Positions 2,490 to 49,689 of a stretch of DNA of 49,689 nucleotides are shown piece after piece. Where the stretch lies: the sequence record NC_105788.1; one strand, written 5' to 3'. How positions within the stretch are numbered: position 1 is the stretch's first letter; each line of letters starts with the position of its first letter. Source of the stretch: a phage. The position numbers and the translations under genes were made by a program. The notes below the pieces were generated by a model. The model saw only the letters and a program-made list of their open reading frames with translations. It had not been told where the DNA came from and ran no database searches.

Positions 2490-2505
2490 CTGGTTAGGGG
2501 GAATA

Positions 2506-2999: not shown

Positions 3000-3057
3000 C
3001 ATGCTATCGGGGGTGATATATATTACTCCCACACCAAACGAAACAAAGGAATCAAAA

Positions 3058-3495: not shown

Positions 3496-3515
3496 ATAGC
3501 ACGATTTGTTAATAT
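3496..3515 (+). promoter_or_regulatory. conserved box variant ATAGCACGATTTGTTAATAT
   Basis: box copy after an unannotated acidic open frame. Confidence 0.5.
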
Positions 3516-3575
3516 TGCCGTAAGGTCATTTGATAAAGTGGCCTTATTCAAGATAACCAATCAGGAGCGAACGCA

Positions 3576-3992
3576 ATGAAAACCATTAAACTTAAATGCA
3601 CTTCAGCAGACAAAATCACAGGATTCGAAGTAAACAATCTGTATAAAGGTCGTGAGCGCTATGATGGCACTCGCGAAGTAAAGTTAAAATGCGGTAAGTA
3701 TTTAAAACTTGAAAAGCATGATGAATTACAGATTCACGGATCTGATGAAATCTTCTTCGCGAAGTTCACCGAGTTGAAAACAAAGACGCTCAAGTGCACC
3801 GGACTTGACCATCGCAACCCGATGAAAAAATCATTCAAAGTTGGCAAGCGTTATCAGGTAGAAAGCGGTCGCGCTCTTGGTGGCGTAGCTGGTTACATCT
3901 TTGATGAAGATGGATATCGCTGGACCCTGTTTCGCGAAGAGGTTGGTTTTAGTATCGCAGACGGCACAACCTTTGAGGCCAAATACTTATAA
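3576..3992 (+). CDS. hypothetical protein (138 aa)
   Basis: ATG preceded by AACCAATCAGGAG block. Confidence 0.55.
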   Translation: MKTIKLKCTSADKITGFEVNNLYKGRERYDGTREVKLKCGKYLKLEKHDELQIHGSDEIFFAKFTELKTKTLKCTGLDHRNPMKKSFKVGKRYQVESGRALGGVAGYIFDEDGYRWTLFREEVGFSIADGTTFEAKYL

Positions 3993-3995
3993 CCA

Positions 3996-4015
3996 ATAGC
4001 ACTTTTTGCTAAACG
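3996..4015 (+). promoter_or_regulatory. conserved box ATAGCACTTTTTGCTAAACG
   Basis: box copy after stop of 3576..3992. Confidence 0.6.
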
Positions 4016-4068
4016 CGTGTACCATTGGCGGTGTATCATTCACACCGTCAACAAAGGAGTTTATTGTG

Positions 4069-5637
4069 ATGTTTAATATTAAGCCAAAACTGAATTACCA
4101 ACAGATTATTGAGATCGCAAATAGCACTGGAGTTAATCCGGTGGCGATCGCAATTCGTGAAAACAGCTATGGGGATTCAGTTTCGTTTTGGCAAGATCCG
4201 ATCGATATCAACAGTGGAAACGATAAGTTCCCGCTGATTTCGTTAGGTGGCGATAACCTGGTATTCGAATATGCAAAGGCAAAGGCTGAGTCTGTACAGT
4301 TTCCTGTTTCGTCTGCGTACGCTCATTTCATTGGGTGCATCTCAGCCGCGATGCTAGGGAAGTTTTGGGTGCAATATCACGGAGAAGAGCAACCGACCGC
4401 TCTTTATATGGTGATTAGTCAGCCACCTTCAACAGGTAAATCAGCTATTAACTCAGCGGCGATTACACCTATGCGTGCGGAGATTCAGCGGCTGAATGAA
4501 GAGCGAAAAAAGGAGCGCATCCGTTTAACCAGTCAGCTACGTCAGGTCGAGAAGGAAATCAAAAACGATCCAAAGGGTAATACGACGGCGGCGCTGTACG
4601 AAGACAAGGAAAAACTGGAAGAAAAGATCAAGAAGATGGCTGATATTGTTTTTGCGGTATCAGATCCTACACCTGAAGGTCTTGCGAAAGTTGCGGCTGT
4701 TCAAGGTCATTTCTCAGTAATCTCTGATGAGGCAACGGCAATAAATACATTGCTTGGCCTGACTTATGGCGGCTCTGATAAGAAATCAAACAGCGAGCTT
4801 ATACTCAAGGCGTGGGATAAAAACCATATGGAGGTTGCGCGTTCAAATCAGGACAACAACTTATCTCTTTGCCCGGTCGGTTCGATCTGCGTCATTGCGC
4901 AGGATGAAACAATCAAGGGTATCATGGACGCAGGCCAGCGCGGCATCGGTGTATCTGAGCGTTTCCTCCTGGTTCGCGAGGAACCGCTTTTAGGTACTCG
5001 TATTCTTTGCGATGAAAATGGTGATGCGCTGTATAAGGAAGTCGATCGAGGGTTGGTGAGTAAATATTATCGACTCGTGCACAACATTATGAAGGAGGAC
5101 AACATTGTTCTCTCTGTAAGCCGCAATGCTATGCGTGAATTAAACCTTGCGCGTCAGGCGATGGAGCCGGATTTCGCAGCCGGGGGAAAATACTCTCACT
5201 CAATGCTACGCGGTCATCTCGGCAAGTTCGATAAGCATGCCTTGCGTATTGCTTCAGTTCTCCACACGATCAAGAATTGGGAGGGTGAATCACCGAACCG
5301 TTCCAACCGTGAGATTGACCTTGAAACAATGCAGGAAGCAATCATGATTTTCAATGAGCTTTCCAGGACTTATCTGTCGTCTGCCAGCGCTGCCGGGTAT
5401 GCTGGTGATGAGGCTGAATCTCGTAAGCTGATTGATGTTATCACTGAGATCGCAAAGAAGAACAAAGGGCGCGCTCCGATTCATAGCATTGTTGCAAAGT
5501 GCCGGAATGTTACGCCGTTCAACGGTCAACAGAAAGTATCTGAGCGAATCGACAGCCTGCTGATCACGCTCGAAGAGATGAACTACACTTGCCGGATTGA
5601 TGATATTGTTTTCATCAACCCTCGACTGATGGGTTAA
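4069..5637 (+). CDS. large early protein of unknown function (about 522 aa) with P-loop-like PPSTGKS motif
   Basis: ATG 4069 (GTG 4066 possible) after AAAGGAG; long uninterrupted ORF; motif resembles DUF3987-type NTPase signatures but not verified. Confidence 0.55.
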   Translation: MFNIKPKLNYQQIIEIANSTGVNPVAIAIRENSYGDSVSFWQDPIDINSGNDKFPLISLGGDNLVFEYAKAKAESVQFPVSSAYAHFIGCISAAMLGKFWVQYHGEEQPTALYMVISQPPSTGKSAINSAAITPMRAEIQRLNEERKKERIRLTSQLRQVEKEIKNDPKGNTTAALYEDKEKLEEKIKKMADIVFAVSDPTPEGLAKVAAVQGHFSVISDEATAINTLLGLTYGGSDKKSNSELILKAWDKNHMEVARSNQDNNLSLCPVGSICVIAQDETIKGIMDAGQRGIGVSERFLLVREEPLLGTRILCDENGDALYKEVDRGLVSKYYRLVHNIMKEDNIVLSVSRNAMRELNLARQAMEPDFAAGGKYSHSMLRGHLGKFDKHALRIASVLHTIKNWEGESPNRSNREIDLETMQEAIMIFNELSRTYLSSASAAGYAGDEAESRKLIDVITEIAKKNKGRAPIHSIVAKCRNVTPFNGQQKVSERIDSLLITLEEMNYTCRIDDIVFINPRLMG

Positions 5638-5641
5638 TAAT

Positions 5642-6049
5642 ATGCTTCTTCTTTTAGATCTGTTCAGGTTCTGCGAAGGTTACGACAAATACACCCGACA
5701 GCACATAGCGAAATTTATATACGCCCACAATGAAAGTGAGCGATTTGCTAAGGCCGCCGGGATGACTCGCCGTGAATTTACAAGCGCGCTATCTAAGGAG
5801 TTTTGCGCACGTTGCGTGACTGAGGGTTATCTTGATTGCAGGGGTGGGTTTTACTGGTGCAAGGGAAAGATCAAGCGCCCGGTAATGATGAAGCTGATGT
5901 GTATTGATGGCTACAACAATCGATATACGTGGGAAATGATGCACATTGGAGAAATGAGTGATGAAGAATTGTTTGGCGAACGTAGAAACGTTGATAGATC
6001 GGAACGTCGAATTGTGCGCAAGGCTCCAGCTTACGAAAGAAGAATTTGA
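5642..6049 (+). CDS. hypothetical protein (135 aa)
   Basis: ORF track; overlaps next call by about 90 nt in another frame, so the true 3' end is uncertain. Confidence 0.4.
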   Translation: MLLLLDLFRFCEGYDKYTRQHIAKFIYAHNESERFAKAAGMTRREFTSALSKEFCARCVTEGYLDCRGGFYWCKGKIKRPVMMKLMCIDGYNNRYTWEMMHIGEMSDEELFGERRNVDRSERRIVRKAPAYERRI

Positions 6050-6161
6050 GCAAGGATTACTTAGCCTACTGCTCACTTCGATGAGGGCCAATAACGACGG
6101 TGAGCACAATCTTTGCGATCAGGATGGGGAGTTGCTACTTCACGTCAAAAGGTACAAATAG
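5961..6161 (+). CDS. hypothetical protein (66 aa)
   Basis: ATG after GGAG RBS; stop TAG lies inside a box copy, as for many other genes. Confidence 0.45.
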   Translation: MKNCLANVETLIDRNVELCARLQLTKEEFEQGLLSLLLTSMRANNDGEHNLCDQDGELLLHVKRYK

Positions 6162-6177
6162 CACTTTTTGTTAAAAC
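6158..6177 (+). promoter_or_regulatory. conserved box ATAGCACTTTTTGTTAAAAC followed by hairpin CCCGAT..ATCGGG, TATATT and TTCATCGAAACGAAACG leader
   Basis: box copy. Confidence 0.6.
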
Positions 6178-6238
6178 ACCCGATCTCGCATCGGGTATAT
6201 TTGTTTCATCGAAACGAAACGACCTGAAGGAAAACATC

Positions 6239-6454
6239 ATGGCTAACAAATTTTTAGTAGTTCGCGTTTACAATCACTCAAACGGTACTAGTAGTGAGAT
6301 TCCTACTCTTTACAGCAAGACTGATGGGTGGACTGAAGAAGCGGCGGTGGCGAACGAGAAGAAGGTCGCTGAGATGTACGGCGACACCTGTGAAATTGAA
6401 GTTCGCGAATACGCAAAACTCACGAACGAAAGTTACATGTGGGCTGATGCATAA
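6239..6454 (+). CDS. hypothetical protein (71 aa)
   Basis: ATG 6239 after GAAGGA RBS (internal start of ORF 6113..6454). Confidence 0.5.
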   Translation: MANKFLVVRVYNHSNGTSSEIPTLYSKTDGWTEEAAVANEKKVAEMYGDTCEIEVREYAKLTNESYMWADA

Positions 6455-6458
6455 AAGA

Positions 6459-6487
6459 AAAGGAGGCTTACGCCTCCTTTTTTTCGT
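6459..6487. terminator. bidirectional intrinsic terminator (AGGAGGC-TTAC-GCCTCCT flanked by A-run and T-run)
   Basis: GC stem plus T8 on + strand and A-run upstream; lies between convergent + and - transcription units. Confidence 0.7.
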
Positions 6488-6872
6488 CCTTACGAATTGA
6501 AAAATAAACCAGCAACAGGCCAATGAAAACGAGAGTCCATCCTACAATTGCATCGTACCAGTTTTCCGGTTTTGTTACTGTGATGCTTTCAGCGTTAACC
6601 GTGTTAGCCTGAATGGTTGACACTTCAATTGACTTCTTCAAGGAAGAGTCAATCTTTCCTACATTGGACTTCTCAACTTTAACATCTCGCTTATCTTCGG
6701 ATTTTGCGGTTACTCCTGCTAATTGCTTTGTGTTCTCCTCTCCGATTTGTGCTGTAACTTCCGGTTTAGATCCGATTAAACCGCTCATGGCAGATGCCGT
6801 CGAGCAACCGGATAGAGAAATAACACCAACAGCAACAGCAATCGCAATGCACGTTTTCTTCATTCTCATCAT
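6468..6872 (-). CDS. unimolecular spanin (u-spanin, T1 gp11-like)
   Basis: N-terminal lipoprotein signal with lipobox LSGC plus C-terminal transmembrane helix ([20 protein letters not shown]); directly downstream of endolysin with ATGA start/stop overlap. Confidence 0.75.
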
Positions 6873-7357
6873 AGTTCCTTAACGCAATACGCGTATTCTT
6901 CAGCGCGTCGGTTCTTGAGTCCTCTAGACACTTCGCGCTTTTTGGTTTTTGGGTTGTAGTAGTATACCCATCGCCATAACTGATTGCACGCTTCCTTGTG
7001 CTTACTCTGATTTATTAGCTTAAGCATTGTAGACGATCCGAACGCGCCAGTCCCAACGTTGAAAGTGAAGCTATACAGTGATGCGCGCATAGTTACCGGG
7101 ATATCAACCTTCACCTTTTTGTCGACGTATCGCTGAGCGACGCCGATATGTTTTATCAACAAGGCATCGCATTCTCGCTTAGTGTATTTCTTACCAGGTA
7201 TGACGTCAGGCCCGGTTATTCCGCTGCATACGGTAGGGACTCCGGCGATATCGTAATAAACCTCGTATTCTATACCTTCGATCCGTTCCAGTAGGGTAGG
7301 TGTCAACGTCAAAGCGGCCCCGATTGATGCGCCTATAACGTTATTTTTTAAACTCAT
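6869..7357 (-). CDS. SAR endolysin (lysozyme, phage 21 R-like)
   Basis: Gly/Ala-rich weakly hydrophobic N-terminal SAR-like segment followed by E..D..T lysozyme-type catalytic region; strong GGGGGAG RBS; position between holin and spanin. Confidence 0.7.
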
Positions 7358-7572
7358 TATCTCCCCCTGATCTTAAGCGCCTTATTTAGATCGCCATCGT
7401 TTAACGCCTCCTGAATTGCCTTACTATCACGATACTTCCAGTACGCTCCCCAGGCGCCAAAAAGCAGAAAGCAAATGAATGTAGCGCCAGCAATATAAAG
7501 TTGCCCTGTCGCCGCCCCTACCAACGAAGCGCCGCCTGTGCTGGACGTCGCAGCGGTTAAAAATTCTTTCAT
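7357..7572 (-). CDS. holin (pinholin-like, about 71 aa)
   Basis: small membrane protein immediately upstream of SAR endolysin; start chosen at internal ATG with GGTGAG RBS; upstream TTG start of ORF track not supported. Confidence 0.6.
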
Positions 7573-7690
7573 AATCTCACCATATATTTTTTGAACAAGT
7601 GAGTCGATTTTAACCTTCAAATTTACTTGATACAACGCAAAAAGGCCAGCATGTAAACCATGCCAGCCTGTAAGGTGATGAATGATATTG

Positions 7691-7867
7691 TTAATCTATC
7701 GCAATAAATTCCAGATAGCTGCCGTTCAGAGGAGCCTGGATTGCTGAACCTCGCCCGTCGTAAATCTCAAATAATCCCCCACCGAAATCATAACCAACAC
7801 TATAGATCTGATTTACGCGGAATGGAAGTGTTTTGGAGTCATTTCGGATGCACTTAACTCGTTTCAT
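7691..7867 (-). CDS. hypothetical small protein (58 aa, below ORF-track cutoff)
   Basis: manual translation MKRVKCIRNDSKTLPFRVNQIY...; AAGAGGA RBS 6 nt upstream; coordinates approximate. Confidence 0.4.
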   Translation of the reverse strand: MKRVKCIRNDSKTLPFRVNQIYSVGYDFGGGLFEIYDGRGSAIQAPLNGSYLEFIAID

Positions 7868-7921
7868 GATATATCCTCTTTGTTTTCGTTGTGGTTACTA
7901 TACCCGAATCCCTTCGGGCGT

Positions 7922-7939
7922 CTTTATCAATTAGTGCGA
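7922..7939 (-). promoter_or_regulatory. degenerate box copy (GCACTAATTGATAAAG) followed by hairpin CCCGAA..TTCGGG and TATAGT
   Basis: resembles box cassettes; overlaps stop codon of 7931..9082. Confidence 0.4.
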
Positions 7940-9082
7940 TCCTGTCATTTCTGGACGATATATGAAACGACCGATTTCCCCAAACTGCTTATCGTAAACA
8001 ATTACCGCCGCCTGGCGATACGATCGCCACCCTCCGCGTGCTGCGTATGCATCTTTCGCGCCTAACTGGCCGTGTACTTCATCAATACCAAGCGAGTGCT
8101 CAGTGATTGTCTGGTGATGCCAGTGACCACTATGAGTATACACATACTTGCTCTCGCCGAAGTCTGATCGGAAATCTGCCGCCATTGCTGCAAGTCTCGT
8201 ATCTGCCTTCTTCATAGTGTGACCGTGAGTGTATCCCAACAAAGTATTTCCCCAACGAGTCTTATGCAGAATCATAGGACTAACATCAACGAATACTCGC
8301 GGCTCGTCTTCATAATATGCCGACATTGCAGCTCGCAGCCAAATCATCCCAGACTGATCGTGGTTCCCTTCGATAACCTGGACCTCGACTTCTTTGTGTT
8401 TCATAAGCATTTTGTCGATGGCGCGACGCACAGAACGAATCGCTACATGCACCAATTTCGCATATCGTGAATCCTGATCCAGAACGTGACCGCTTGCCGG
8501 GGTAACAGCGTCAAGGCCGTCAGAGTGAAGGAAGTCGCCACCGATTAACAGAACAGCCTTCTCTGCGTTCGGCGCAATATCGATCGCGTAATTAAAGAAG
8601 TCGCTAAGCACTTTTTCCGCTACGTCGGTGGAATAGTTCTCACCGCATTCATGCTTATGAGCAAGCGCGCCAATATGGAGATCGAATACCGGATAGAGTG
8701 CCAGCTTACCCATCGCTGTCGTAAGCCCTTGCGAGGTTAGTAGCTCGGTTGGCTTTGCTCGCGGCAGGTCTTCACAGAATGCAATACGCGCCGCTTCCAT
8801 CATTGCCGCAATCTTCTCACGGTCCTGATCGGTTTTAACCCAGCGCACTACCTCGGTCCCATCTCCGCGAATCATCGTTGATGTGCCTTTTACCATGAAT
8901 CCTTCCGGTACGTTCTTAGCAACATGCTCGTTACCGTGGAAGTGGCCTTCTTTTGCCAATTTTGCGTGGCGAGCTTCAACCGTGCGAATGTGCATACCGT
9001 ACTTTTCCGCGATCTCGCGAAGTGTAAGTCCGTTCATGCGTTCTTCGATAAGTTGCTCGGTAGTGATTTTAGATTGTGACAT
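7931..9082 (-). CDS. HTH domain fused to calcineurin-like metallophosphoesterase (Mre11/SbcD-like nuclease or PPP-type phosphatase)
   Basis: N-terminal helix-turn-helix-like segment (LTLREIAEKYGMHIRTVEARHAKL); metallophosphoesterase motifs DLHIG, GGDFLHSD, GNHD, GHTMKK, GHWHH; AAGGA RBS. Confidence 0.65.
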   Translation of the reverse strand: MSQSKITTEQLIEERMNGLTLREIAEKYGMHIRTVEARHAKLAKEGHFHGNEHVAKNVPEGFMVKGTSTMIRGDGTEVVRWVKTDQDREKIAAMMEAARIAFCEDLPRAKPTELLTSQGLTTAMGKLALYPVFDLHIGALAHKHECGENYSTDVAEKVLSDFFNYAIDIAPNAEKAVLLIGGDFLHSDGLDAVTPASGHVLDQDSRYAKLVHVAIRSVRRAIDKMLMKHKEVEVQVIEGNHDQSGMIWLRAAMSAYYEDEPRVFVDVSPMILHKTRWGNTLLGYTHGHTMKKADTRLAAMAADFRSDFGESKYVYTHSGHWHHQTITEHSLGIDEVHGQLGAKDAYAARGGWRSYRQAAVIVYDKQFGEIGRFIYRPEMTGSH

Positions 9083-9160
9083 ATTTTAATCCTTACATGA
9101 TAATGAAATACATTACTGAAAATGAAATTAGCGGTGTTAATACTACAGCAAAATAAAGTC

Positions 9161-9562
9161 TCATGCCACAGCCTTTAACCAGAATCCTAGATCTGAAGAT
9201 TTAAACTCAACCAGTTTTCCATTAACCTCAAGCATCATACTGTTTCTACCTGGTGAGTAATAACCTATATGCAACTCTTGCTCGATCCCAATAGTGCAAA
9301 GCACATTAACGAAGTCAGGAGGCAACCAATCAGAGAAAGGGATTTTCTTAACCTGCTTCTTTCCGATCCATATGGTCTGGTAGTCATCTAAGTTAATGTT
9401 TAAGCCTGGAAGACTTGTTGCTCTTTGCTGTTTTTCGTTCTCGCTCAATTCTCTTTCCTTCTTCACGATAAAATTCAAGTGATGGGGTAGCTGGCACTCT
9501 ATGCATTTTTCTCGGCATATCTTCCATAAATGAAATCTTTCCGTTTGAGATAATGCTAACAT
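9161..9562 (-). CDS. C-terminal frame of a frame-disrupted gene (hypothetical)
   Basis: protein-like ORF with no credible RBS at its own ATG; overlaps 9393..9665 by 170 nt in another frame. Confidence 0.3.
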   Translation of the reverse strand: MLALSQTERFHLWKICREKCIECQLPHHLNFIVKKERELSENEKQQRATSLPGLNINLDDYQTIWIGKKQVKKIPFSDWLPPDFVNVLCTIGIEQELHIGYYSPGRNSMMLEVNGKLVEFKSSDLGFWLKAVA

Positions 9563-9665
9563 CCTTTATATCGAAATATTTTGCTATTAGTGCTATATCG
9601 TCTGAGATTCCGCATTCCTTTGCGTGCTCCCACACTTCGCGCTTACCTTTCTTTTTTATCAGCAT
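9393..9665 (-). CDS. N-terminal frame of a frame-disrupted gene (hypothetical)
   Basis: good GGAGAAA RBS at 9665 start; 3' part looks like out-of-frame readthrough (KR-rich). Confidence 0.35.
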   Translation of the reverse strand: MLIKKKGKREVWEHAKECGISDDIALIAKYFDIKDVSIISNGKISFMEDMPRKMHRVPATPSLEFYREEGKRIERERKTAKSNKSSRLKH

Positions 9666-9852
9666 TAGTTAATTTCTCCACGTCAGAGATGAAGCCTTCG
9701 ACTTCTTCAACCGAGCAACGGTAATAAGACATTTTAAGGAAGTTCATAGCAATATCCCAATCGAAGTTGCCACCTTGCTTACTCGTAATATGAACGGCCA
9801 TTTTTGCAGACTGCTGGGCGATATTGAAAAAGTTTGCGTTAATGCGTGCCAT
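9643..9852 (-). CDS. hypothetical protein (69 aa)
   Basis: internal ATG of ORF 9643..9867 with GAGGAA RBS. Confidence 0.45.
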   Translation of the reverse strand: MARINANFFNIAQQSAKMAVHITSKQGGNFDWDIAMNFLKMSYYRCSVEEVEGFISDVEKLTNADKKER

Positions 9853-9908
9853 CTTCTGATTCCTCATTTCGTTTCTATGAAATAACTATACCCGACTTTC
9901 GCCGGGTA

Positions 9909-9928
9909 GTTTTAGCAATTAGTGCTGT
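9909..9928 (-). promoter_or_regulatory. box variant (AGCACTAATTGCTAAAAC) followed by hairpin TACCCG..CGGGTA and TATAGT
   Basis: box-like sequence overlapping stop of 9919..10170. Confidence 0.45.
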
Positions 9929-10170
9929 GTGATTATCTCAGAAGAAAGTTCTTCTACGTCTTTTTGGATGATTGAAGGCCAACGCTCGATATATTCATTT
10001 TTTATCTCATCGAAAGACATATCAAGAGAACTGGTGAACTCCCACAGATCGCAACCAATAACATCCTGAGTCAATCCGTTTTGCTCCATAATTTCGCAGC
10101 ACGTAGCGCGATAAAGAAGCCATAAACCTTGCTCAGTTAATTTAACAGGAACCATTTTTTCGCTCATCAT
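9919..10170 (-). CDS. hypothetical protein (83 aa)
   Basis: ATGA overlap with Dam stop; GGTGAGGAAAG RBS. Confidence 0.5.
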   Translation of the reverse strand: MMSEKMVPVKLTEQGLWLLYRATCCEIMEQNGLTQDVIGCDLWEFTSSLDMSFDEIKNEYIERWPSIIQKDVEELSSEIITQH

Positions 10171-10880
10171 ACTTTCCTCACCTTTGCTCGTTTGTTTTTA
10201 ACCGAAGGGCAAATGCTTGTGATTGGGATATAGTGAGTTTGCTGTGTCTCACCCTCTTTAAGTTCGCGCATGATAAAAATTACCGAACCTTTGTTATTAC
10301 CATCTACGGCCTTTCCAGTTTCACCGGATATGAAAGCCAGGCGACCGGATCGTGCGTATTCATTGCCGTCAATATCCTCAGTCAAGTCCGCTTCAATCCA
10401 GATTATTTCAGCTGCGTTCTGTCGCGCCTCAGTAAACCACGCCGTAGAGTTATCTGCAGGTAAAAGCATATCGATCTGATTGTTGTGCTCCATTTGCTCA
10501 ATGGCCTTCTTGACAAATATATCAGGTCGGCTATAAGGAGGATTTAACCAAACGTGCTTATTCTTTCCCCACCAACGTTTTAAGCAGTTTGTTTCCTGAG
10601 AGTAAAACTTCTCGCAAACTTTATTTTCTTCGCTTGCCGCAGCGTCGAGATCATATTTCCCATAACGACCCTCAAGGTATGCAATAACCTCGCGCGGAGT
10701 TGACCATAAATCACGAACAGCGTCAGGGGTATTTGTCCCCTTGTATCGACGCCCTGAAATCTCTTTGCAGGTTGGCGTTTTCAATGCCTGATAATAACCG
10801 CCTGATGCTATTGCTTCGCGAGTGAATGAGCAACCAGTCTCTGCAAAGTCGATGGTTTCAATATCATTAAAGTCTTTCAT
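10167..10880 (-). CDS. dam: DNA N6-adenine methyltransferase (phage Dam-like)
   Basis: WLNPPYS catalytic motif (NPPY); GAGAGGA RBS; preceded by a full box cassette. Confidence 0.75.
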   Translation of the reverse strand: MKDFNDIETIDFAETGCSFTREAIASGGYYQALKTPTCKEISGRRYKGTNTPDAVRDLWSTPREVIAYLEGRYGKYDLDAAASEENKVCEKFYSQETNCLKRWWGKNKHVWLNPPYSRPDIFVKKAIEQMEHNNQIDMLLPADNSTAWFTEARQNAAEIIWIEADLTEDIDGNEYARSGRLAFISGETGKAVDGNNKGSVIFIMRELKEGETQQTHYIPITSICPSVKNKRAKVRKV

Positions 10881-10931
10881 CTTTAGTCCTCTCGTTTCGG
10901 TGAGATAATAATGCCAGATTCCATTCCAGCA

Positions 10932-10951
10932 GTTTTAACAAAAAGTGCTAT
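10932..10951 (-). promoter_or_regulatory. conserved box (minus strand reads ATAGCACTTTTTGTTAAAAC); cassette nearly identical to 1198-1265
   Basis: box copy overlapping TAG stop of VRR-NUC gene, upstream of Dam. Confidence 0.6.
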
Positions 10952-11364
10952 TTCATTAATTCGTAAATTGCGACCTTGAATTGCTCAAATCCGTATGCGA
11001 CGGCAGGGAAGCCGCCACGCTCACGGACCTTTCGGAGAAATTCCCTTTGCTTGTCGCTGACTGGTGACGCCTTTCCTTTGCCTGACTTATTAACCCGCTT
11101 AAGTTCGATTGCTGCAAACGGGTATCGTGAGTTAACACCAATCAGGATAACAAAGTCTGACACGCCTTTAAGTAATCCGGCCTGCTCATCCCTGAGCGCC
11201 GATGTGATTGTTTTTTCACCTTCATTGACAGTGTGCCAAAATAGAAGGTGAGGAAAATTGTATTTCAGCCAGGATACACAATCCACCTGATGAGCGTCCT
11301 CCTTTCTAGTGTCGCTTGGATCTCTCTCGTAAAATTCTAAATAATCACCTTTGTCTGTAATCAT
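10948..11364 (-). CDS. VRR-NUC domain nuclease
   Basis: PD-(D/E)xK-like arrangement (GVSDFVILIG ... AAIELK); GGAGGA RBS inside helicase 3' end. Confidence 0.6.
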   Translation of the reverse strand: MITDKGDYLEFYERDPSDTRKEDAHQVDCVSWLKYNFPHLLFWHTVNEGEKTITSALRDEQAGLLKGVSDFVILIGVNSRYPFAAIELKRVNKSGKGKASPVSDKQREFLRKVRERGGFPAVAYGFEQFKVAIYELMK

Positions 11365-13379
11365 TCCGGGATATCCTCCATACCAAAGTCTTTTCGTGAG
11401 ATAATATCTTCTTTCTTCTGGTTGCGACGATGAGTTACGCGCACCGGGTGAGCAATATGATGTGAGTATTGCAAAATCTTGATGGCGTTCTTCATTCCGA
11501 TAAAGTATCGGCGCATTTTAGGATCTGATACGTGTGGCAATACACCTTTAGTTTTCCATAGCGTACCGCAAATCTTAGAGTCAGACTCGGGGAAGAATTT
11601 TTCATACGCCTTGAACTCATCACCATCATCGTTAATAAGAGTGTATTTGTATATTATGCCTTTCTGGTTTTTGGTTAGCGTAACCTCAAAATTCTTTACT
11701 TCATACCAGTCATTCTTGGTGTACGCCTTACCGGATAACTTCAGGTTGGGATCGACAAGCGAAACATCACAACAACGACAGACTCGAGCCACAACGTCAT
11801 TCTCTGCACCGCATCCTTTAACAAGGATTTTCCCGGTACGTTCATCAACCTGGTCCTCGCAAATCTGAGAAGTCCAGAAATAATCGCAACGTTCACCATC
11901 AATAACATTAACGCATCGTCGAGCATAGAAGCTATTTACGCAACCGCATTTCGGACATGTTTTCGGATCTTTTCCGTTTTCAAATCGCTTTTGGAATTGC
12001 GCCTGCTCAAGTATCGGATCGAAATAAAGCTGCCCCAGCTCATCCATGGTGCCTGCAAAATCCCACACCAAATGGTCTTGCTTAACCATTCCCTCAGCAA
12101 CCTGCCAGGATTTAAGCAGACGCATACCCCTACCCAAAAGCTGAATCAACAGAGTGAGCGACCCTATCTTGCGGAGTATGACACTGAAATCCCAATTTGG
12201 AACGTTAACGCCAGTCGTGAGCGCCATGACCTGAAAGGTGTATTTAATCTTCCCAGCCCTTACATCGTCCAGAATCTTCTTGCGCGTTTTGGTGTCTGTG
12301 TCGCCAGTGATTATTGCATAGGTGCTTCCTGGAGGCAGTGCCGCAGCCGCCTCTTTACAGTGACGCACCCCCGCGCATGTAATCAGAACCGCGTTACGTT
12401 CTTCAGCCTTTTTGGCGACCATTTGCATGATTCGCTGAGTAAGAGATTTATCATGAAGGATCTCATCTTCCATTGCCTTCATATCTTTCTCTGCAAAGTC
12501 CTGTACGCCGTCCTCGCTTGATGCCTTGAACTTATCCAGGTCGTAGTGTACGCCGTCAGTCGAACCGAATATCGTCGGCACAACAGAGCCAAACTCAATC
12601 AGATAGTTTGTGTCGATATCAGTTACGCGCTCACGCCAGAATCCTAACGCATTTGGATTCTCCACCAGAATCGGAACAACGCCCCTAAATTCAGATCCTG
12701 TCATGCCAAATATTCTGAGGTCATGCCCGTGAATCTCTTTACAGCGACGCATCATCTCCATGATTACGATCGTGTACTGGCTTCGCTTAGTTCCAAGTAA
12801 AGGTTTCCCATCATTACCAATCAGAGGAATCTCCCCGTCCATAATAATTTTCCCTTTCTCGCCCCTCATCTGCTCCATCGTTTCTTTTCCTTCGATGGCT
12901 TGAGCAAGGTCTTCCCAATCCACCTGGTGACATTCGTCGATCCCAATTACATGCGGGACAAAATCAGCCAACTCATTGTCGAGGCCATTTGCAACCGTAC
13001 CCTCAGAGCCAACCACGATCGGGAAGTAGCAGGACTTGATTCCAAGCGATGCTGAGAAGATGGAGTTCGTTACCCCGAAGTTGTCGATCTCCTCACTATC
13101 CTGATCGACAATCTCACCCTGTCGGGCAAGCACAAGCATTTTCAGGCCCATTTTTTGACACTGCTTTGCCACCATAGCGAATATGATTGTTTTACCCGCA
13201 GATACTGACGCTTTAACAAAGAATGGATGCTCGTAATTTGACAGGCGTTTTGCGATCTCGGCATAAGCAACAACCTGATACGGATAAGGAACGACCTCAC
13301 CGACAGTGAATCGTTCTTGAGTGCGTTTTATATAGTCCTCGCCAAGTAATGCGATTTGCTTCTTGATGTTAATTGTCAC
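11361..13379 (-). CDS. SF2 DNA helicase with C-terminal Cys-rich (zinc-binding-like) region
   Basis: Walker A SAGKT, DExH box IDECHQ, C-terminal CPKCGC..C..C cluster; start codon appears to be GTG. Confidence 0.75.
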   Translation of the reverse strand: MTINIKKQIALLGEDYIKRTQERFTVGEVVPYPYQVVAYAEIAKRLSNYEHPFFVKASVSAGKTIIFAMVAKQCQKMGLKMLVLARQGEIVDQDSEEIDNFGVTNSIFSASLGIKSCYFPIVVGSEGTVANGLDNELADFVPHVIGIDECHQVDWEDLAQAIEGKETMEQMRGEKGKIIMDGEIPLIGNDGKPLLGTKRSQYTIVIMEMMRRCKEIHGHDLRIFGMTGSEFRGVVPILVENPNALGFWRERVTDIDTNYLIEFGSVVPTIFGSTDGVHYDLDKFKASSEDGVQDFAEKDMKAMEDEILHDKSLTQRIMQMVAKKAEERNAVLITCAGVRHCKEAAAALPPGSTYAIITGDTDTKTRKKILDDVRAGKIKYTFQVMALTTGVNVPNWDFSVILRKIGSLTLLIQLLGRGMRLLKSWQVAEGMVKQDHLVWDFAGTMDELGQLYFDPILEQAQFQKRFENGKDPKTCPKCGCVNSFYARRCVNVIDGERCDYFWTSQICEDQVDERTGKILVKGCGAENDVVARVCRCCDVSLVDPNLKLSGKAYTKNDWYEVKNFEVTLTKNQKGIIYKYTLINDDGDEFKAYEKFFPESDSKICGTLWKTKGVLPHVSDPKMRRYFIGMKNAIKILQYSHHIAHPVRVTHRRNQKKEDIISRKDFGMEDIPE

Positions 13380-43594: not shown

Positions 43595-44202
43595 TTCAAT
43601 AACTCCTTGCACTTAATGCAAATTTTCTCACCAAATGGCGGTAGCGGCTCAGATGGTTCATGATTGCAAACCTCATCTACCCCGTGAGATTTTAAATGAT
43701 CGTGGACTTTATCGCCATAGTCAACTACAGCATAAGTGGTTATTCCAAGCGACCGGAATAATGGAATAATTTGCGGTGAGTCATCCCATGCCGCCAGAAT
43801 GTTCTCAATGCCGATCGCGCGCACCGCCTCTTCTTTCATTACTGTGTCTTTCCGGTTATCGGTGTGTGGTCGCATAATCAGGTAATCATATCGAGCGCCG
43901 TGATGCTTGAGCCATAACTCAGATGCGTAACGCACCTCATCACTTCGCCCGGTTAAAATGATCACATGATACCCAGCGGCAAACATAGAGTTCATCACTT
44001 CAATCGTACTCTTGATTGGGTTATCAAATATTGCCGCTCGGTTAAACTCTGACCAGCTTTCAGTTAGGTGCAAATCCTTTGTCGGTAGCAGGTGAAGTCT
44101 ACCTGATCCGTCACTAAGTGTCCCGTCAAAGTCAAAGATTGCTACGCGGCGAGTACCGAGAAACAGGTTGATTGTCTGGCCCCAAATGGTAATTTTATCC
44201 AT
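43591..44202 (-). CDS. HAD-superfamily phosphatase
   Basis: N-terminal DFDGTLS (DxDxT) motif; C-terminal Cys cluster; CAATCAGAGGA RBS. Confidence 0.6.
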   Translation of the reverse strand: MDKITIWGQTINLFLGTRRVAIFDFDGTLSDGSGRLHLLPTKDLHLTESWSEFNRAAIFDNPIKSTIEVMNSMFAAGYHVIILTGRSDEVRYASELWLKHHGARYDYLIMRPHTDNRKDTVMKEEAVRAIGIENILAAWDDSPQIIPLFRSLGITTYAVVDYGDKVHDHLKSHGVDEVCNHEPSEPLPPFGEKICIKCKELLK

Positions 44203-44266
44203 GATTTATTCCTCTGATTGGTTGCTTAACTCAACGAAGGGCATTCTAACAAATGCCCTTGAGCAA

Positions 44267-44286
44267 GTTTTAGCAATTCGTGCTAT
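44267..44286 (-). promoter_or_regulatory. conserved box (minus strand ATAGCACGAATTGCTAAAAC) followed by hairpin AAGGGCA..TGCCCTT
   Basis: box copy after TAA stop of upstream gene. Confidence 0.6.
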
Positions 44287-44732
44287 TACCAACAAGTGAT
44301 CTCATAGTTGGCCCAGTCATCAAAGATACCCTGGCTGAAGTCGCCACCGTAGTTTTCCATAAGTTCATCGATCAGGAAGTAGCAGGATTCGCCGTTACGA
44401 TAGAAGTATGAATCTGCAACGTTACGCGCCCAGCGTCCGGCATCTTTCTTGCTCATCTTCCAGTATTTCATTGCAATTTTCTTGAATGCTCGCACGACAC
44501 GCTTGCGGATCTTGATATTCTTGTACACCGAATTGCAGCCGTAGGCCATATATTCGTTATTTCCAAGATTCTGCATGATGTACGGATTAACCTCTTTTGA
44601 GGTAATCATCAGATCGCCATCGCCGCGACGCGCATCATAAATACTTGCTGTCATGTAGTGACCTTTGAACATTCCGATGCCGTGCAGGGTGTATTCATCG
44701 TTAGGCGTTTCAATGCAAATCAAATGTTTCAT
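44286..44732 (-). CDS. hypothetical protein (about 148 aa)
   Basis: internal ATG with GAGGGA RBS. Confidence 0.45.
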   Translation of the reverse strand: MKHLICIETPNDEYTLHGIGMFKGHYMTASIYDARRGDGDLMITSKEVNPYIMQNLGNNEYMAYGCNSVYKNIKIRKRVVRAFKKIAMKYWKMSKKDAGRWARNVADSYFYRNGESCYFLIDELMENYGGDFSQGIFDDWANYEITCW

Positions 44733-44786
44733 GAGTGTTCCCTCGTTTTTTGGTGTAGGGGAATCATAGCGCATTCCCCTTGATAG

Positions 44787-44806
44787 GTTTTAGCAATTCG
44801 TGCTAT
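44787..44806 (-). promoter_or_regulatory. conserved box (minus strand ATAGCACGAATTGCTAAAAC) followed by hairpin AGGGGAATG..CATTCCCCT
   Basis: box encodes C-terminal TNSTNC-stop of upstream gene. Confidence 0.6.
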
Positions 44807-45008
44807 TCGTTTTAATAGTGATGCAAAAATAATTTTTTAAGCACGTCACCACGCGCGCTGAATCGACTTGTGGGAGCCTTAAAATTTCGTGGACCAATTG
44901 CACTGCCGACACCTCAGATTTGTAGTAGTGTGCGATTCTTGAGGTATTTGGGCGCATTCCTTCCACTGCGTCACGCGCTGCATCTTCTGTTGTCATGATA
45001 GTAGCCAT
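44790..45008 (-). CDS. hypothetical protein (72 aa)
   Basis: ORF track. Confidence 0.45.
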   Translation of the reverse strand: MATIMTTEDAARDAVEGMRPNTSRIAHYYKSEVSAVQLVHEILRLPQVDSARVVTCLKNYFCITIKTNSTNC

Positions 45009-45112
45009 AAAACACCCTTAAGAGATAATGTCAGGACCAGGAGGCAGAATAGCAACTCCTGAAATGATGGCGGCTCGTTATTCCAGTTGGAAAAGTCTGG
45101 CATAGTGTTTTC

Positions 45113-45148
45113 TCCAAAAGAAAGGGGAACCGTTCAGAGCCGATTCCC
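45113..45148 (-). terminator. hairpin plus T-run after 45157..45795 gene
   Basis: GGGGAATCGG..CCGTTCCCC followed by TTTCTTTT on minus strand. Confidence 0.45.
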
Positions 45149-45156
45149 CATTAAAA

Positions 45157-45795
45157 TTACATAATGAAAAACAGCGAAATCGCAGCCACCAGGAGAACAA
45201 TCGCAACAGCCAGGCCGGATAAATCCGCTTTCTCTTCAAACTTCATTGCTGGCTTGCGGTCAACATCAATAGGCTTGACGTTGCTAATCTTGCTGGTGTT
45301 GATCTTGCCGTTGACGCGGAAAGTTCGCTTACGCTTCTTGCCGAACGTTGCAAACTTAGTACCGCCGCTATTCCAGCGAAGACCCTCGCCGTTGTGCGTT
45401 ACGGTTGCAATGCGGTTGCGGCCCGTGTCGTCGGTAATTACAGCTGTGTGCTTTGCGTGCTCGGTCGGTACATCGTAGATATTGCCAACGGTAAATTTTT
45501 TGGTGTTATCGCTGATACATTCGAATTTCATAGTTTTTACCTCTTTATTATGCAGTTGGTTGATTGCTTCGATTACGTCGTTAAATTTAACACCATCCAC
45601 GATTCGATGGAAGATATATTTTGAGCTACCGCCATAAGGCAGGAAAATTTCCTGATATTCGTGACGCCGTACAACGTTCACGTTGCAACCGTTCTCATCA
45701 GTAATGATGAAGCTGTCATCATTTACGCGAACACCTTTGTAAGTTTTTCCCCACTTAAAACCAGATCCGCTACTTGATACGCACTCAAATTTCAT
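45157..45795 (-). CDS. tail-anchored membrane protein with two tandem homologous domains
   Basis: two repeats both starting MKFEC(V/I)S with shared I(I/V)TD(E/D).G.N core; C-terminal TM helix LSGLAVAIVLLVAAISLFFIM. Confidence 0.55.
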   Translation of the reverse strand: MKFECVSSSGSGFKWGKTYKGVRVNDDSFIITDENGCNVNVVRRHEYQEIFLPYGGSSKYIFHRIVDGVKFNDVIEAINQLHNKEVKTMKFECISDNTKKFTVGNIYDVPTEHAKHTAVITDDTGRNRIATVTHNGEGLRWNSGGTKFATFGKKRKRTFRVNGKINTSKISNVKPIDVDRKPAMKFEEKADLSGLAVAIVLLVAAISLFFIM

Positions 45796-46079
45796 GGTCT
45801 AACCTTCCTGTAAGGCTTGATTGATAACATCACGTATTGCGTGAAGTCGCATTCTTGCTCGTCATAACCGCGATTGATGTATGGCGTCACGTCTGTAACA
45901 TCGGACACCCTTGCGTGAACTTCCCACCCGGTAAATTCGTCACGATCGAACTCGCGTAGCTCAAGGATATCACCAACCTGGAAGTTGCGGTCATTGACGC
46001 GGAACTCTGCCGTTTTGGTTCCGTTCATTACACCAATGAAATGTACCGGGGAGATTTTTAACTTATGAGTTTTGCTCAT
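45792..46079 (-). CDS. ASCH/PUA-like small protein (DUF3850-like)
   Basis: pattern KISPVHF..V..G.KTAEFR.NDR.FQVGD.L.L.E typical of ASCH-fold proteins (recalled, not searched). Confidence 0.5.
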   Translation of the reverse strand: MSKTHKLKISPVHFIGVMNGTKTAEFRVNDRNFQVGDILELREFDRDEFTGWEVHARVSDVTDVTPYINRGYDEQECDFTQYVMLSIKPYRKVRP

Positions 46080-46269
46080 CTTTCTTTACCTCGAATGTCA
46101 CGTTCCAGAATTTATTGCCGCATGAGTGATAGATTACGTCCTGAGACGTGAGTTCGTGCAATGCGTGCCCGATAATCTCCATGCGGTCGTTCGGTGCCAG
46201 TCCGCGAAGCGATTCACGAAGGCGTGAGGCCTTGTCGTAAATCTGCCACTGAGTTAGTCGTGTAGCCAT
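46063..46269 (-). CDS. hypothetical protein (68 aa)
   Basis: internal ATG preceded by AACCAATCAGAGGA. Confidence 0.45.
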   Translation of the reverse strand: MATRLTQWQIYDKASRLRESLRGLAPNDRMEIIGHALHELTSQDVIYHSCGNKFWNVTFEVKKDEQNS

Positions 46270-46334
46270 AGCTGATTCCTCTGATTGGTTGCCTTGCTTC
46301 AATAAGGCCACTATATCAAATGGACTTGCGGAAG

Positions 46335-46353
46335 GTTTAGCAATTCGTGCTAT
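46335..46353 (-). promoter_or_regulatory. conserved box (minus strand ATAGCACGAATTGCTAAAC)
   Basis: box copy overlapping stop of a small unannotated ORF. Confidence 0.6.
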
Positions 46354-46499
46354 CGTTTAACGCACATCGTTTTTACTTCGTATCCGAACGGCTTGTTCTC
46401 TGAAATCACCTCCCGAGCCTTGTTGCATGATTGTTGGCTTTCCATGTATACGTGTTCTGGCCCGGTACTCATCAAGATAATCAAAATCCACGCCGCCAT
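46350..46499 (-). CDS. small protein with hydrophobic N-terminus (49 aa, below ORF-track cutoff)
   Basis: manual translation MAAWILIILMSTGPEHVYMESQQSCNK...; GAGGTGA RBS; TAATG overlap with upstream gene; stop TAG inside box; coordinates approximate. Confidence 0.4.
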   Translation of the reverse strand: MAAWILIILMSTGPEHVYMESQQSCNKAREVISENKPFGYEVKTMCVKR

Positions 46500-47005
46500 T
46501 ATTTCACCTCATAGCGTACAAGTGTTCCGCGCTTAACGCTTATTTCACCTGATACCGTTTTGTGCTTAAAGCTGCCGTAATGCAATAGGAGAATCACTAC
46601 ATCATCATGCACCTCAATAGTTTTAGGTGTGGCGGTAATCTCGATCCAGGATTCGCTATCAAGTTGAACGCCCTTTAGCGTAGCGCTCAATGGCATGTTC
46701 TCGATCTGAGTGCATTGTAACATCGGTTTAATTTCTGGCTTTGCGGGGTGGAAGATGGATCGATCAGTTTTCCAACCATCATACTTTCCGTACGAATCCT
46801 GACTACCACTAATAATGTAATGGTAATCCTTCTTGTCTGAGTTTTCAGGATTTACTTCATTGTGCCGATTGATAAACCAATCCAACTTAAGCTGAGACAC
46901 CTCATCAGTGGCCCACTTGCCTTTATCTTCACTGGTGAATGTAATTTCACCGCAACCCAGGCTGATAAATTTAATCGGGAATTTTACGTCTTCTAATTTT
47001 AACAT
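46499..47005 (-). CDS. hypothetical protein (168 aa)
   Basis: ORF track; AGAGGAA RBS. Confidence 0.5.
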   Translation of the reverse strand: MLKLEDVKFPIKFISLGCGEITFTSEDKGKWATDEVSQLKLDWFINRHNEVNPENSDKKDYHYIISGSQDSYGKYDGWKTDRSIFHPAKPEIKPMLQCTQIENMPLSATLKGVQLDSESWIEITATPKTIEVHDDVVILLLHYGSFKHKTVSGEISVKRGTLVRYEVK

Positions 47006-47060
47006 GATACTTTCCTCTTAGTGGTTTATGTGGGGATTATACCAGTCAGGCCAAATCCCC

Positions 47061-47080
47061 CTTTAACAATTCGTGCTTAG
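47061..47080 (-). promoter_or_regulatory. box variant (minus strand CTAAGCACGAATTGTTAAAG)
   Basis: box-like copy overlapping stop of upstream gene. Confidence 0.5.
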
Positions 47081-47565
47081 TAAACTAACTCGCACTCAAT
47101 ATCGAACGGTTCTGGATCTCGATGGAAGAAGCAGAGCGCCTCTTTATTCATACCGCCGACAAATCCAACTGCTCGCAACTGCTCATCGTTAACGTATGCC
47201 AGGTTGCTAGTGATTTCTTCAAAATCAACGATAACCGGGAACGTGCGGTTCTCATACCCCGAGCGCATCGGGTATCCGCCACTATTGAGAAGTCGAACCT
47301 TGCGCGGCTTAGGATTTGACTGGACTTCCCACTCGAAGAAGAACATCGTTCCGTCTTTCTCATTGAAGTCTGCCGGACCGACTACCTGGCTAACCGAAAG
47401 TCCATAATCCAGATCGTACGCGCCAGCTTTTACCAGATCGTCAACCTTAACACGGTAGCCTCCAGTACTGGAATCACACTTCACCGCATCAACCACGATA
47501 GGGTCCGCTTCCAGATCTCGGGTAAATCCCTTGTAACCGCCAGTGCAAATTAATTTGATTTTCAT
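47077..47565 (-). CDS. hypothetical protein (162 aa)
   Basis: ORF track; GAGGA RBS. Confidence 0.5.
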   Translation of the reverse strand: MKIKLICTGGYKGFTRDLEADPIVVDAVKCDSSTGGYRVKVDDLVKAGAYDLDYGLSVSQVVGPADFNEKDGTMFFFEWEVQSNPKPRKVRLLNSGGYPMRSGYENRTFPVIVDFEEITSNLAYVNDEQLRAVGFVGGMNKEALCFFHRDPEPFDIECELVY

Positions 47566-47620
47566 GCTATCGTCCTCGCTCGTTGTCGATGGGGTTACTA
47601 TATCGCAACCCCGGAATTTA

Positions 47621-47640
47621 TTTTTAACAAAAAGTGCTAT
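47621..47640 (-). promoter_or_regulatory. conserved box (minus strand ATAGCACTTTTTGTTAAAAA)
   Basis: box copy overlapping TAG stop of upstream gene. Confidence 0.6.
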
Positions 47641-48107
47641 TTGGTGAGATACTTTACCTCACTGCCTGACATCATATTCCAACCATCATCAAAGAATACG
47701 CTATAGCATGTTGCCGAACGCTGGCGAATCTTAGATACAGTGCGCCACACCTTACGACCCGAGTAACCAGTCAGCACACGCATCCCTGGCAATAGCTCAC
47801 ACGACTTTCTCACCTTGATAGTCACATCAGCATCAAGTTCGAACGACTCAAGGCGAACCGGATTGACCATCTCAAACATTCGCATAACTTCGTGATCTTC
47901 CTTCCACTCGCAGCCGCCGCTAGCTTTAACGGCTTCAATGAAATTACTCAGTTTGTCAGTGAGCAGTTCGTCATCGTACGCCTCAATTGATATGACCGTG
48001 TAGTGAGTGTACGTATGCCAGTGCGAGCCGGTTTTATGCTCAAACGCAAAGAATGACATTTCGCCATCAAGCTCATCTTTAGCAAGAAATACGGTAATTG
48101 TCGCCAT
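47637..48107 (-). CDS. hypothetical protein (156 aa)
   Basis: ORF track; GGAGG RBS. Confidence 0.5.
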   Translation of the reverse strand: MATITVFLAKDELDGEMSFFAFEHKTGSHWHTYTHYTVISIEAYDDELLTDKLSNFIEAVKASGGCEWKEDHEVMRMFEMVNPVRLESFELDADVTIKVRKSCELLPGMRVLTGYSGRKVWRTVSKIRQRSATCYSVFFDDGWNMMSGSEVKYLTK

Positions 48108-48109
48108 GA

Positions 48110-48304
48110 TTAAGCCTCCGCAAAGTAAGTGTTAAAGCCTTTGAGTTTATAGTCGCTGCCTACGCGCACCACGTTCCAGGTGAGGCCCGAGTGATATGCA
48201 ACCATATCCTCAAGGTCGATCGTGATTTCCGTTCCTTTCTTGAACAAACCCTTTTCATGAGTTGAGTCTCGCTGAACAACCACTACGTCAAGTTGCGTTT
48301 CCAT
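48110..48304 (-). CDS. hypothetical protein (64 aa)
   Basis: ORF track; AAGGAA RBS. Confidence 0.45.
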   Translation of the reverse strand: METQLDVVVVQRDSTHEKGLFKKGTEITIDLEDMVAYHSGLTWNVVRVGSDYKLKGFNTYFAEA

Positions 48305-48359
48305 CTTCGTTTCCTTATTCGTTGTCGATGGGATAACTATACCAGGTTATCCCGATCCG

Positions 48360-48379
48360 GTTTTAACAAAAAGTGCTAT
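48360..48379 (-). promoter_or_regulatory. conserved box (minus strand ATAGCACTTTTTGTTAAAAC)
   Basis: box copy after first gene of minus early arm. Confidence 0.6.
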
Positions 48380-48393
48380 TTACCTCTCAGCGC

Positions 48394-48909
48394 TTACAGT
48401 CCACACTTTTCGATATGCGCTTTCATCTGGCGCACGATCTCATTTACATCACGAACCATTAACTCGCTGTCGCTCAGCTTGCTAACATCAACATCAAACG
48501 AGTCCAGGCAATCAGCCAAGCTAACTTTTTTCCGGCTGCGGCGCTTCTTCACCGGAACCTCTTCGTCGGTAACGATAACGGTTATCATCGTGATTGCCGC
48601 GTCATTCCGGCCTACCTTCACCTTTGCCACCTTGCCATACTTGCAAAAGTGTCGGGTAATGATCGGAGTGATGAAAGCGGACTTGAATCTCTTCTCTACC
48701 TCCCCCTGGTTCTGGTCAACCCATCCGGCAGCGGCAGATTCAAGATCGGCATCGCTTACCTCCTGGCCCCGAAAGTAGAATCGCGCTGCTTCTAGGGCCA
48801 TATCATCAGCCACGAAAGAGAACTCATTCATGCCTTTGTCGCGGTACATTGCATCGCAGGTTAGTCGAATCATGTCGGTGATTTTTAATTCCTGATTGGT
48901 ATTGCTCAT
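48394..48909 (-). CDS. hypothetical protein (171 aa), first gene of minus-strand early arm
   Basis: ORF track; directly downstream of AT-rich regulatory hub. Confidence 0.5.
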   Translation of the reverse strand: MSNTNQELKITDMIRLTCDAMYRDKGMNEFSFVADDMALEAARFYFRGQEVSDADLESAAAGWVDQNQGEVEKRFKSAFITPIITRHFCKYGKVAKVKVGRNDAAITMITVIVTDEEVPVKKRRSRKKVSLADCLDSFDVDVSKLSDSELMVRDVNEIVRQMKAHIEKCGL

Positions 48910-48929
48910 AATATGCTCTCTTTGTCTAT

Positions 48930-49300
48930 TGGTGTGTAAATGGTGTCATAACATGTCAACAATTGCCATTGTGACAGAGCGACGTAGAGCTGTCAACGAC
49001 TGCAAGCCAATTTTAAGCCGTGTAATATTTGTCTAGCCGTCTAGAGTCACTATAGAAATATATAGCCCTCAAAAAAGTACTGTATATATAAACATGCAGA
49101 TAGAAATATGCCAGCAGTACGCTAGACAATGTAAGACGGCTATACACAACTATTACAATATAATTATCTATATATATAAATAAAAAAAACACTATATATA
49201 TTATATATATACATATATCTATATGTCTATTGTGATGCGTCACAGTGCGTAATTTTGTCACAAGTGCGATTCTAGACAAATATTACAGTCGTGACAAGTT
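48930..49300. promoter_or_regulatory. AT-rich divergent control region with inverted repeats (TAATATTTGTCTAG ... CTAGACAAATATTA) and repeated TGTCAC/GTGACA motifs
   Basis: read directly; separates divergent early transcription units. Confidence 0.5.
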
Positions 49301-49312
49301 AAAGTGTAATCG

Positions 49313-49332
49313 ATAGCACGTTTTGCTAAAAA
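49313..49332 (+). promoter_or_regulatory. conserved box ATAGCACGTTTTGCTAAAAA
   Basis: box copy. Confidence 0.55.
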
Positions 49333-49517
49333 TGGAGATGACTACCAGGCGAACCGGGTAACACTAAATCCTCCCTCTCACAATCATTGCATTCTAAGCA
49401 ACAATCACATCAACAGTTGCACACCATGCAACAATCGCATTTCATCATTCGAGATCAATCGGGATCGCAATTATTCCAGATATTCCATTGCTGGTGGAAT
49501 AATGAGCAACTATTGGA

Positions 49518-49537
49518 ATAGCATTTTTTGCTAACGA
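49518..49537 (+). promoter_or_regulatory. conserved box ATAGCATTTTTTGCTAACGA followed 23 nt later by TATGAT and AACCAATCAGAGGA RBS block
   Basis: box copy. Confidence 0.55.
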
Positions 49538-49592
49538 TTTGGTCAGGCTGGCAGGGTATGATTCATATCATCAACCAATCAGAGGAATCGAC

Positions 49593-49689
49593 ATGAATAT
49601 TGCAAACATCAACGCAGCCATTAATCGTTACGAACACATCTATCGCGTAGCTCTGTTCTCTGACATGGCGCTAGCCAACAAGTCGAAGT
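49593..49689 (+). CDS. 5' fragment of an early gene truncated by window end
   Basis: ATG preceded by AACCAATCAGAGGA; open to end of window (MNIANINAAINRYEHIYRVALFSDMALANKSK...). Confidence 0.4.
   Translation, partial: MNIANINAAINRYEHIYRVALFSDMALANKSK

Follow-up and report, generated by a model that had tools for sequence, protein, structure and literature searches.

The 49,689-nt stretch of phage DNA analysed here (the window) is best explained, with a probability of about 90%, as a unit-length 49,688-bp Tunavirus genome nearly identical to that of phage CLB_P3, with one T doubled at the ends and an unextended methyltransferase next to the join. The window ends interrupt an unremarkable early ORF of 47 aa that relatives' records already annotate. 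Sequence comparison indicates that a single T written at both ends most likely accounts for the in-frame reading into the methyltransferase, which would then be an artefact, an off-by-one error.

Whole-genome BLAST aligned positions 1–43781 of CLB_P3 (OL770108.1; Drexlerviridae, Tunavirus) with window 5909–49689 at 99.995% identity, and positions 43781–49659 with window 1–5901. CLB_P3 is represented in the window in full, at 99.6–100% identity over the full length, and no other sequence is present. The two sequences, CLB_P3 being recorded as a "complete genome", are collinear throughout and related by circular permutation, with the CLB_P3 record opening 5,908 nt away from the window's cut. A 750-nt query laid over the plain join of the window ends matched in one piece inside the CLB_P3 record (99.7%), and also in one piece in SA12KD, Sfin-3 and pSf-2. 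Logan and ENA contigs also run through the junction without a break, and all contiguous matches have one T fewer than the window. More than 30 Tunavirus records, each about 50 kb long, contain the same locus internally, at scattered positions and on both strands.

The packaging genes are of the T1 type. The terS/terL/portal region of T1 (positions 5960–12000) corresponds to window 43484–37444 with 95.7% identity. In T1, a lytic phage of the genus Tunavirus, terS (8396–8920) and terL (8945–10528) both lie within this matched stretch; the terminase was assigned on the presence of a TerS similar to P22 gp3 together with a TerL. The permutation relative to CLB_P3, the presence of the junction inside many records and packaging genes about 96% identical to those of T1 thus support, at the level of sequence, the interpretation that the window is the complete genome of a T1-like phage (Tunavirus), opened somewhere other than at a physical end. 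T1-like phages package their DNA by a pac-initiated headful mechanism that yields terminal redundancy and partial permutation (PMC5238451, PMC11447400, PMC7718038). A whole, circularly permuted genome is thereby supported as known biology. The two window ends have just 1 nt in common. We rejected this terminal direct repeat as a sign of circularity, since on its own it is uninformative and would be expected by chance in about 25–30% of cases.

The following features surround the join:
49517–49534, plus strand: direct-repeat "box" of T1-like phages (AATAGCATTTTTTGCTAA), starting exactly 76 nt before the ATG at 49593.
49555–49562, plus strand: -10-like element GGTATGAT, located 3′ of the box, with a putative promoter function.
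49581–49587, plus strand: ribosome binding site (RBS) AGAGGAA of the 47-aa ORF, as read in the sequence.
49593–49689, plus strand: 5′ part of the 47-aa ORF, codons 1–32 and the first base of codon 33; the T at 49689 is the same base as window position 1.
1–48, plus strand: 3′ remainder of the 47-aa ORF, with the base at 49689 repeated as position 1; codons 33–47 encode SIIDKLNHYKKEIAK and the TGA stop occupies 46–48.
32–36, plus strand: methyltransferase RBS AGGAG, which falls within the small ORF and precedes ATG 45 by 8 nt.
45–749, plus strand: C5-cytosine-type DNA methyltransferase of 234 aa, assigned from phrog_757, homologues, motifs and a predicted model.

Plain concatenation of position 49689 with position 1 gives a frame that is free of stops into ATG 45 and a 281-aa product with a 47-aa extension. 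The sequence-only reading had described an ATG at 49593, with box and RBS, whose frame is cut by the window edge, and its arithmetic was right: 97 nt separate this start from the window end. The continuation in frame that it reported holds for plain joining, but not as a property of the real molecule, since all relatives have one T at this place. A stop-free in-frame join is in any case weak evidence alone, because it is expected by chance in an estimated 16% or so of cases (1/3 for the frame multiplied by about 0.5 for 15 stop-free codons). In the whole-genome alignment, window 49689 and window 1 both correspond to CLB_P3 base 43781, which is used twice. A five-way alignment contains a single indel in the ORF region, an extra T exactly at the join, where the window has GAAGTTCAATC versus GAAGTCAATC in CLB_P3, SA12KD, Sfin-3 and pSf-2. 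One T is also present in Logan contig SRR19268272_61 (49,696 nt), in the ENA metagenome contig k141_33491 and in two IMG/VR contigs, giving eight independent sequences out of eight. A pattern allowing one or two bases retrieved no two-T version from IMG/VR or JGI metagenomes, and in JGI metagenome contigs the junction itself had no match in either form. The lengths agree as well: if an overlap of k-1 = 30 is assumed for the Logan contig, its 49,696 nt reduce to 49,666, and adding the 22-nt insertion at position 2810 gives 49,688, the window length minus 1. A base retained at both ends is a common artefact when a circular assembly is written out, and the duplicated T probably arose during circularisation or trimming.

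With one T, the small ORF (49593–49689 plus 2–48) comprises 144 nt and encodes MNIANINAAINRYEHIYRVALFSDMALANKSKSIIDKLNHYKKEIAK, followed by a stop codon. Its TGA at 46–48 overlaps the methyltransferase ATG at 45–47 in the arrangement ATGA. The same 144-nt CDS followed by a 705-nt CDS with a 4-nt overlap is annotated in CLB_P3, Sfin-3, pSf-2 and phi2457T. In CLB_P3, as in the window, the 47-aa ORF (43685..43828) precedes a 234-aa methyltransferase (43825..44529), and the gene pairs gp80/gp79 of phi2457T, gp74/gp73 of Sfin-3 and gp70/gp71 of pSf-2 are arranged in the same way, at 88–96% nucleotide identity. Using tblastn, we found that the corrected 47-aa product matched seven Tunavirus phages, with residues 12–47 running in a single frame across the join. 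In Chapo, a different ORF of 165 nt, which overlaps the 144-nt CDS by 4 nt, lies between this CDS and the methyltransferase; as its neighbour can differ, the small ORF is a gene in its own right. Other relatives carry a different 70-aa ORF at the same place, and in still others the promoter and RBS directly precede the methyltransferase. Searches of Pfam, PHROGs, NCBIfam and PDB sequences returned no match for the 47-aa protein.

The METHYLTRANSFERASE start is ATG 45, and there is no fused, N-terminally extended methyltransferase. The suggestion that the enzyme may carry 47 additional N-terminal residues is contradicted by homologues that begin at the internal ATG and by the upstream ORF having its own stop, an outcome that the sequence-only reading had itself named as refuting. 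The accompanying observation that the methyltransferase has a good RBS of its own was correct. No homologue spanning the junction with such an extension was found: it is absent from the best 120 of 4,782 methyltransferase homologues at E≤1e-5, whose lengths are 158–259 aa. Upstream of the methyltransferase start, the open frame extends over no more than 25 codons in 32 IMG/VR loci, and the first 35 residues contain the motif I region (window: FDGSG) in the 32 homologues that we examined.

The protein itself is predicted to be a compact C5-type (Dcm-like) methyltransferase, as annotated in the records of several relatives. Residues 1–231 match the phrog_757 "DNA methyltransferase" profile from profile position 14 (E 5.6e-83). 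We looked for motif I FxGxG, motif IV PC and an ENV-like motif VI. F8-D9-G10-S11-G12 (motif I), P81-C82 (IV) and E128-N129-P130 (VI) are invariant or nearly so in 33 sequences, the positions listed as invariant being S11-G12, P80/C82 and E128-N129-P130. An AlphaFold model built on the 33-sequence alignment (pLDDT 89.6, pTM 0.88) places strand beta1 at residues 3–7, which also speaks for a start at ATG 45, and has the predicted C5-methyltransferase catalytic fold. The top 48 PDB fold matches are all DNMT3A/3B/3C catalytic domains, with a best E value of 2.3e-7 and TM scores of only 0.43–0.53. The nearest solved folds are therefore eukaryotic DNMT3 catalytic domains, not bacterial enzymes of the M.HhaI type. 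Pfam and NCBIfam gave no methyltransferase match at E≤1, below family thresholds, and a PDB sequence search was also empty. Three of the listed homologues carry precomputed PF00145 matches. The family is large, with 4,782 matches at the E value given above, compact, and escapes Pfam and NCBIfam. At window position 412, codon 123 of the methyltransferase encodes Gly (G), versus Val (T) in CLB_P3 and most homologues (consensus VPYMIENP). The site lies just before the ENP motif strand, and Gly123 may reflect a sequencing error or may impair the enzyme mildly. An exact-protein look-up found no record of the G123 variant.

Upstream of the small ORF, the box has the consensus of the direct repeat of T1-like phages, is co-oriented with the gene and lies about 76 nt from the start codon. 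In phage TLS, a 21-nt direct repeat, aaATAGCACnnnTTGnTAAAA, occurs about 76 nt upstream of start codons, and is also present in T1, Rtp and Rogue1 (PMC11447400). The window box has the same consensus, the same orientation relative to transcription and the same distance, and on sequence grounds it is this published repeat. The motif AATAGCAYTTTTTGYTAA occurs in 14 copies in the window when up to 2 mismatches are allowed, versus 0 in shuffled sequences; TLS has 21 copies of its repeat, 18 of them intergenic (PMC11447400). These copies include:
732–749, 1197–1214, 3995–4012, 6157–6174 and 49517–49534.
10935–10952, 47624–47641 and 48363–48380, minus strand.

In the aligned box regions, the equivalent of the -10-like element described above is TGGCATAAT or TGGTATAGT in other copies, at an unchanged distance. 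An extended -10 resembling TGnTATAAT lies about 22 nt after the box, which is thus placed where an UP element would be. The box was considered as a -35 hexamer and rejected because its TTGYTA is separated from the -10-like element by 22–23 nt, which is too long a spacing. An UP-like or factor-binding role is more plausible. The TLS authors suggest likewise, having proposed UP-element-like, enhancer or stoperator functions for the repeat (PMC11447400). A sigma-70 consensus scan of 48900–49689 showed no enrichment over shuffled sequences and missed the box-type promoter. The late region contains two box copies, at 30592 and 34356, which are oriented against the structural genes.

The position of the cut was compared with the ends of other records. 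The T1 record (NC_005833) opens with an annotated repeat_region of 2800 bp. Its position 1 corresponds to window 49432 (minus strand) and its position 48836 to window 49433, and the records of T1, phi2457T and Chapo all open at 49432/49433. Two early operons diverge from the intergenic space that contains the homologue of the T1 end. The window's own cut lies 257 nt away from it and within a gene, and therefore differs from the T1 end. The sequence-only reading had proposed a whole headful-packaged genome linearised at an arbitrary point; the genome is whole, permuted relative to CLB_P3 and equipped with a T1-type terminase, and the cut is not that of T1. A random cut would fall this close to the T1-end homologue in about 1% of cases, which counts against an arbitrary cut. 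Positions 49432/49433 may be the actual pac cut in the window phage. One further feature is located here:
49416–49432, no strand assigned: palindrome GTTGCA-CACCA-TGCAAC, whose last base is the homologue of the end of the T1 record.

This palindrome, GTTGCA-N5-TGCAAC, thus ends exactly at the homologue of T1 position 1 and is a candidate landmark for pac cleavage. The sequence GCAACAATC(A/G)CA occurs twice near it, at 49398 and 49428. A (TA)n-rich tract of about 16 copies, at window 49193–49224, lies between the leftward and rightward early operons and is kept in T1 positions 1–389.

T1 is syntenic with the window and its box/promoter region is 83% identical to window 49433–49575, but T1 has no detectable match to the window from 49576 to about 1923. 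In T1, the promoter region runs directly into ST1, without the small ORF, the C5-type methyltransferase or the four small ORFs that follow it. The corresponding module of about 2 kb in the window consists of the 47-aa ORF, the methyltransferase and ORFs 811–996, 1012–1197, 1208–1615 and 1690–1920, and is variable among Tunavirus records. Because T1 lacks a detectable counterpart, these genes would constitute a module of early genes that varies and lies just inside the pac end.

Few other differences separate the window from CLB_P3. The three SNPs are located at positions 412, 31051 and 44582; 31051 (G/T) and 44582 (A/G) are the only substitutions in 43,781 nt. An exact 30-nt direct duplication, TGTTAGAATCGGATCGCTTGGCGTTGACGA, occupies window 2739–2768 and 2810–2839. 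The second copy and the 5 bases that follow it replace 13 nt (GGGACGGTAAAAA) present in CLB_P3, the Logan contig and T1. The resulting net gain of 22 nt, which CLB_P3 does not have, removes an ATGA stop/start overlap and fuses ORFs similar to T1 ST3 and ST4 (2440/2506–2979). This change could be a real template-switch mutation or a misassembly. Being a second indel that fuses an ATGA-coupled pair, it implies that the isolate or assembly is not simply CLB_P3. Exact-protein look-up of the 2440–2979 ORF, with three start choices, found none on record; the same look-up with a neighbouring 61-aa ORF retrieved independent contigs. Conversely, a tandem duplication of 55 nt, absent from the window, is present in the CLB_P3 GenBank record and stops 7 nt short of the record's end. 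This duplication (CLB_P3 49602–49721; window 5844–5908) lies inside the last annotated CDS and looks like an untrimmed k=55 assembly overlap in the record.

If both Ts at the join were real, a +1 insertion 14 codons before the ATGA overlap would produce the 281-aa fusion, and the assembly would have been opened or broken at that place. The plain join is indeed open and in frame, and the change at 2810–2839, a net +22 nt or +1 modulo 3, fuses another ATGA-coupled pair in the same genome; assemblers can moreover break contigs at polymorphic sites, which would apply to a T/TT polymorphism. We nevertheless consider this explanation very unlikely. An insertion would coincide exactly with the linearisation point only about once in 49,688 cases. 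A single T is present in the eight independent sequences without exception, the one-T frame preserves residues 33–47 of the small protein in seven phages, and the extension is absent from the methyltransferase homologues examined. A genuine second T, and with it a 281-aa fusion of the small early protein with a C5-type methyltransferase, accordingly has only a slim chance of being true. Should it be, the genome would contain two in-frame fusions of ATGA-coupled early pairs, the other being that at 2810–2839, which would be a hint that fusions of the +1 (mod 3) type recur and are tolerated as a way for early genes to change. The change at 2810–2839 contributes to a doubt of about one in twenty that we retain on the reading of the join as an artefact.

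The window ends might also represent a packaging terminus, either real or reported by software (a PhageTerm pac call, for example), instead of an arbitrary cut. The distance of 257 nt to the T1-end homologue places the cut in the same region, by the divergent intergenic space, where several records of relatives (H7, H9, H16, H32) also open. This is again improbable, however: the cut is inside a conserved ORF, the records of T1, phi2457T and Chapo open at 49432/49433 and not at 49689/1, no terminal repeat exceeds 1 nt, and both CLB_P3 and the Logan contig open elsewhere. Finally, the fit of end to start could be a coincidence in a fragment of a larger replicon, either a prophage or a longer contig. 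We found nothing in favour of this, and it is scarcely credible for a sequence that spans all of CLB_P3 and nothing more, whose junction is contiguous in many phage genomes and whose close relatives are all Tunavirus records of about 50 kb.

We thus favour a unit-length genome carrying one duplicated T. Virion DNA of T1-like phages being terminally redundant and partly permuted through pac-initiated headful packaging, its assembly would close as a circle. The circle would then have been written out from an arbitrary point within a small early gene, with one T retained at both ends to give 49,689 nt. In the phage, the box-type early promoter at 49517–49562 would drive the 47-aa ORF, and the methyltransferase, with its own AGGAG, would probably be translated by coupling or re-initiation. 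The one-T sequence has the layout of an ATGA-coupled pair, with the downstream AGGAG (32–36) inside the upstream ORF, and suggests translational coupling of the two genes.

That T1-like phages have circularly permuted genomes and package them by the headful mechanism is textbook knowledge, and no new question is opened here. The value of the result is mainly one of quality control: when the window is circularised, one terminal T has to be dropped, as otherwise a false 281-aa "extended methyltransferase" arises, and the window can be used as a complete 49,688-bp Tunavirus genome.
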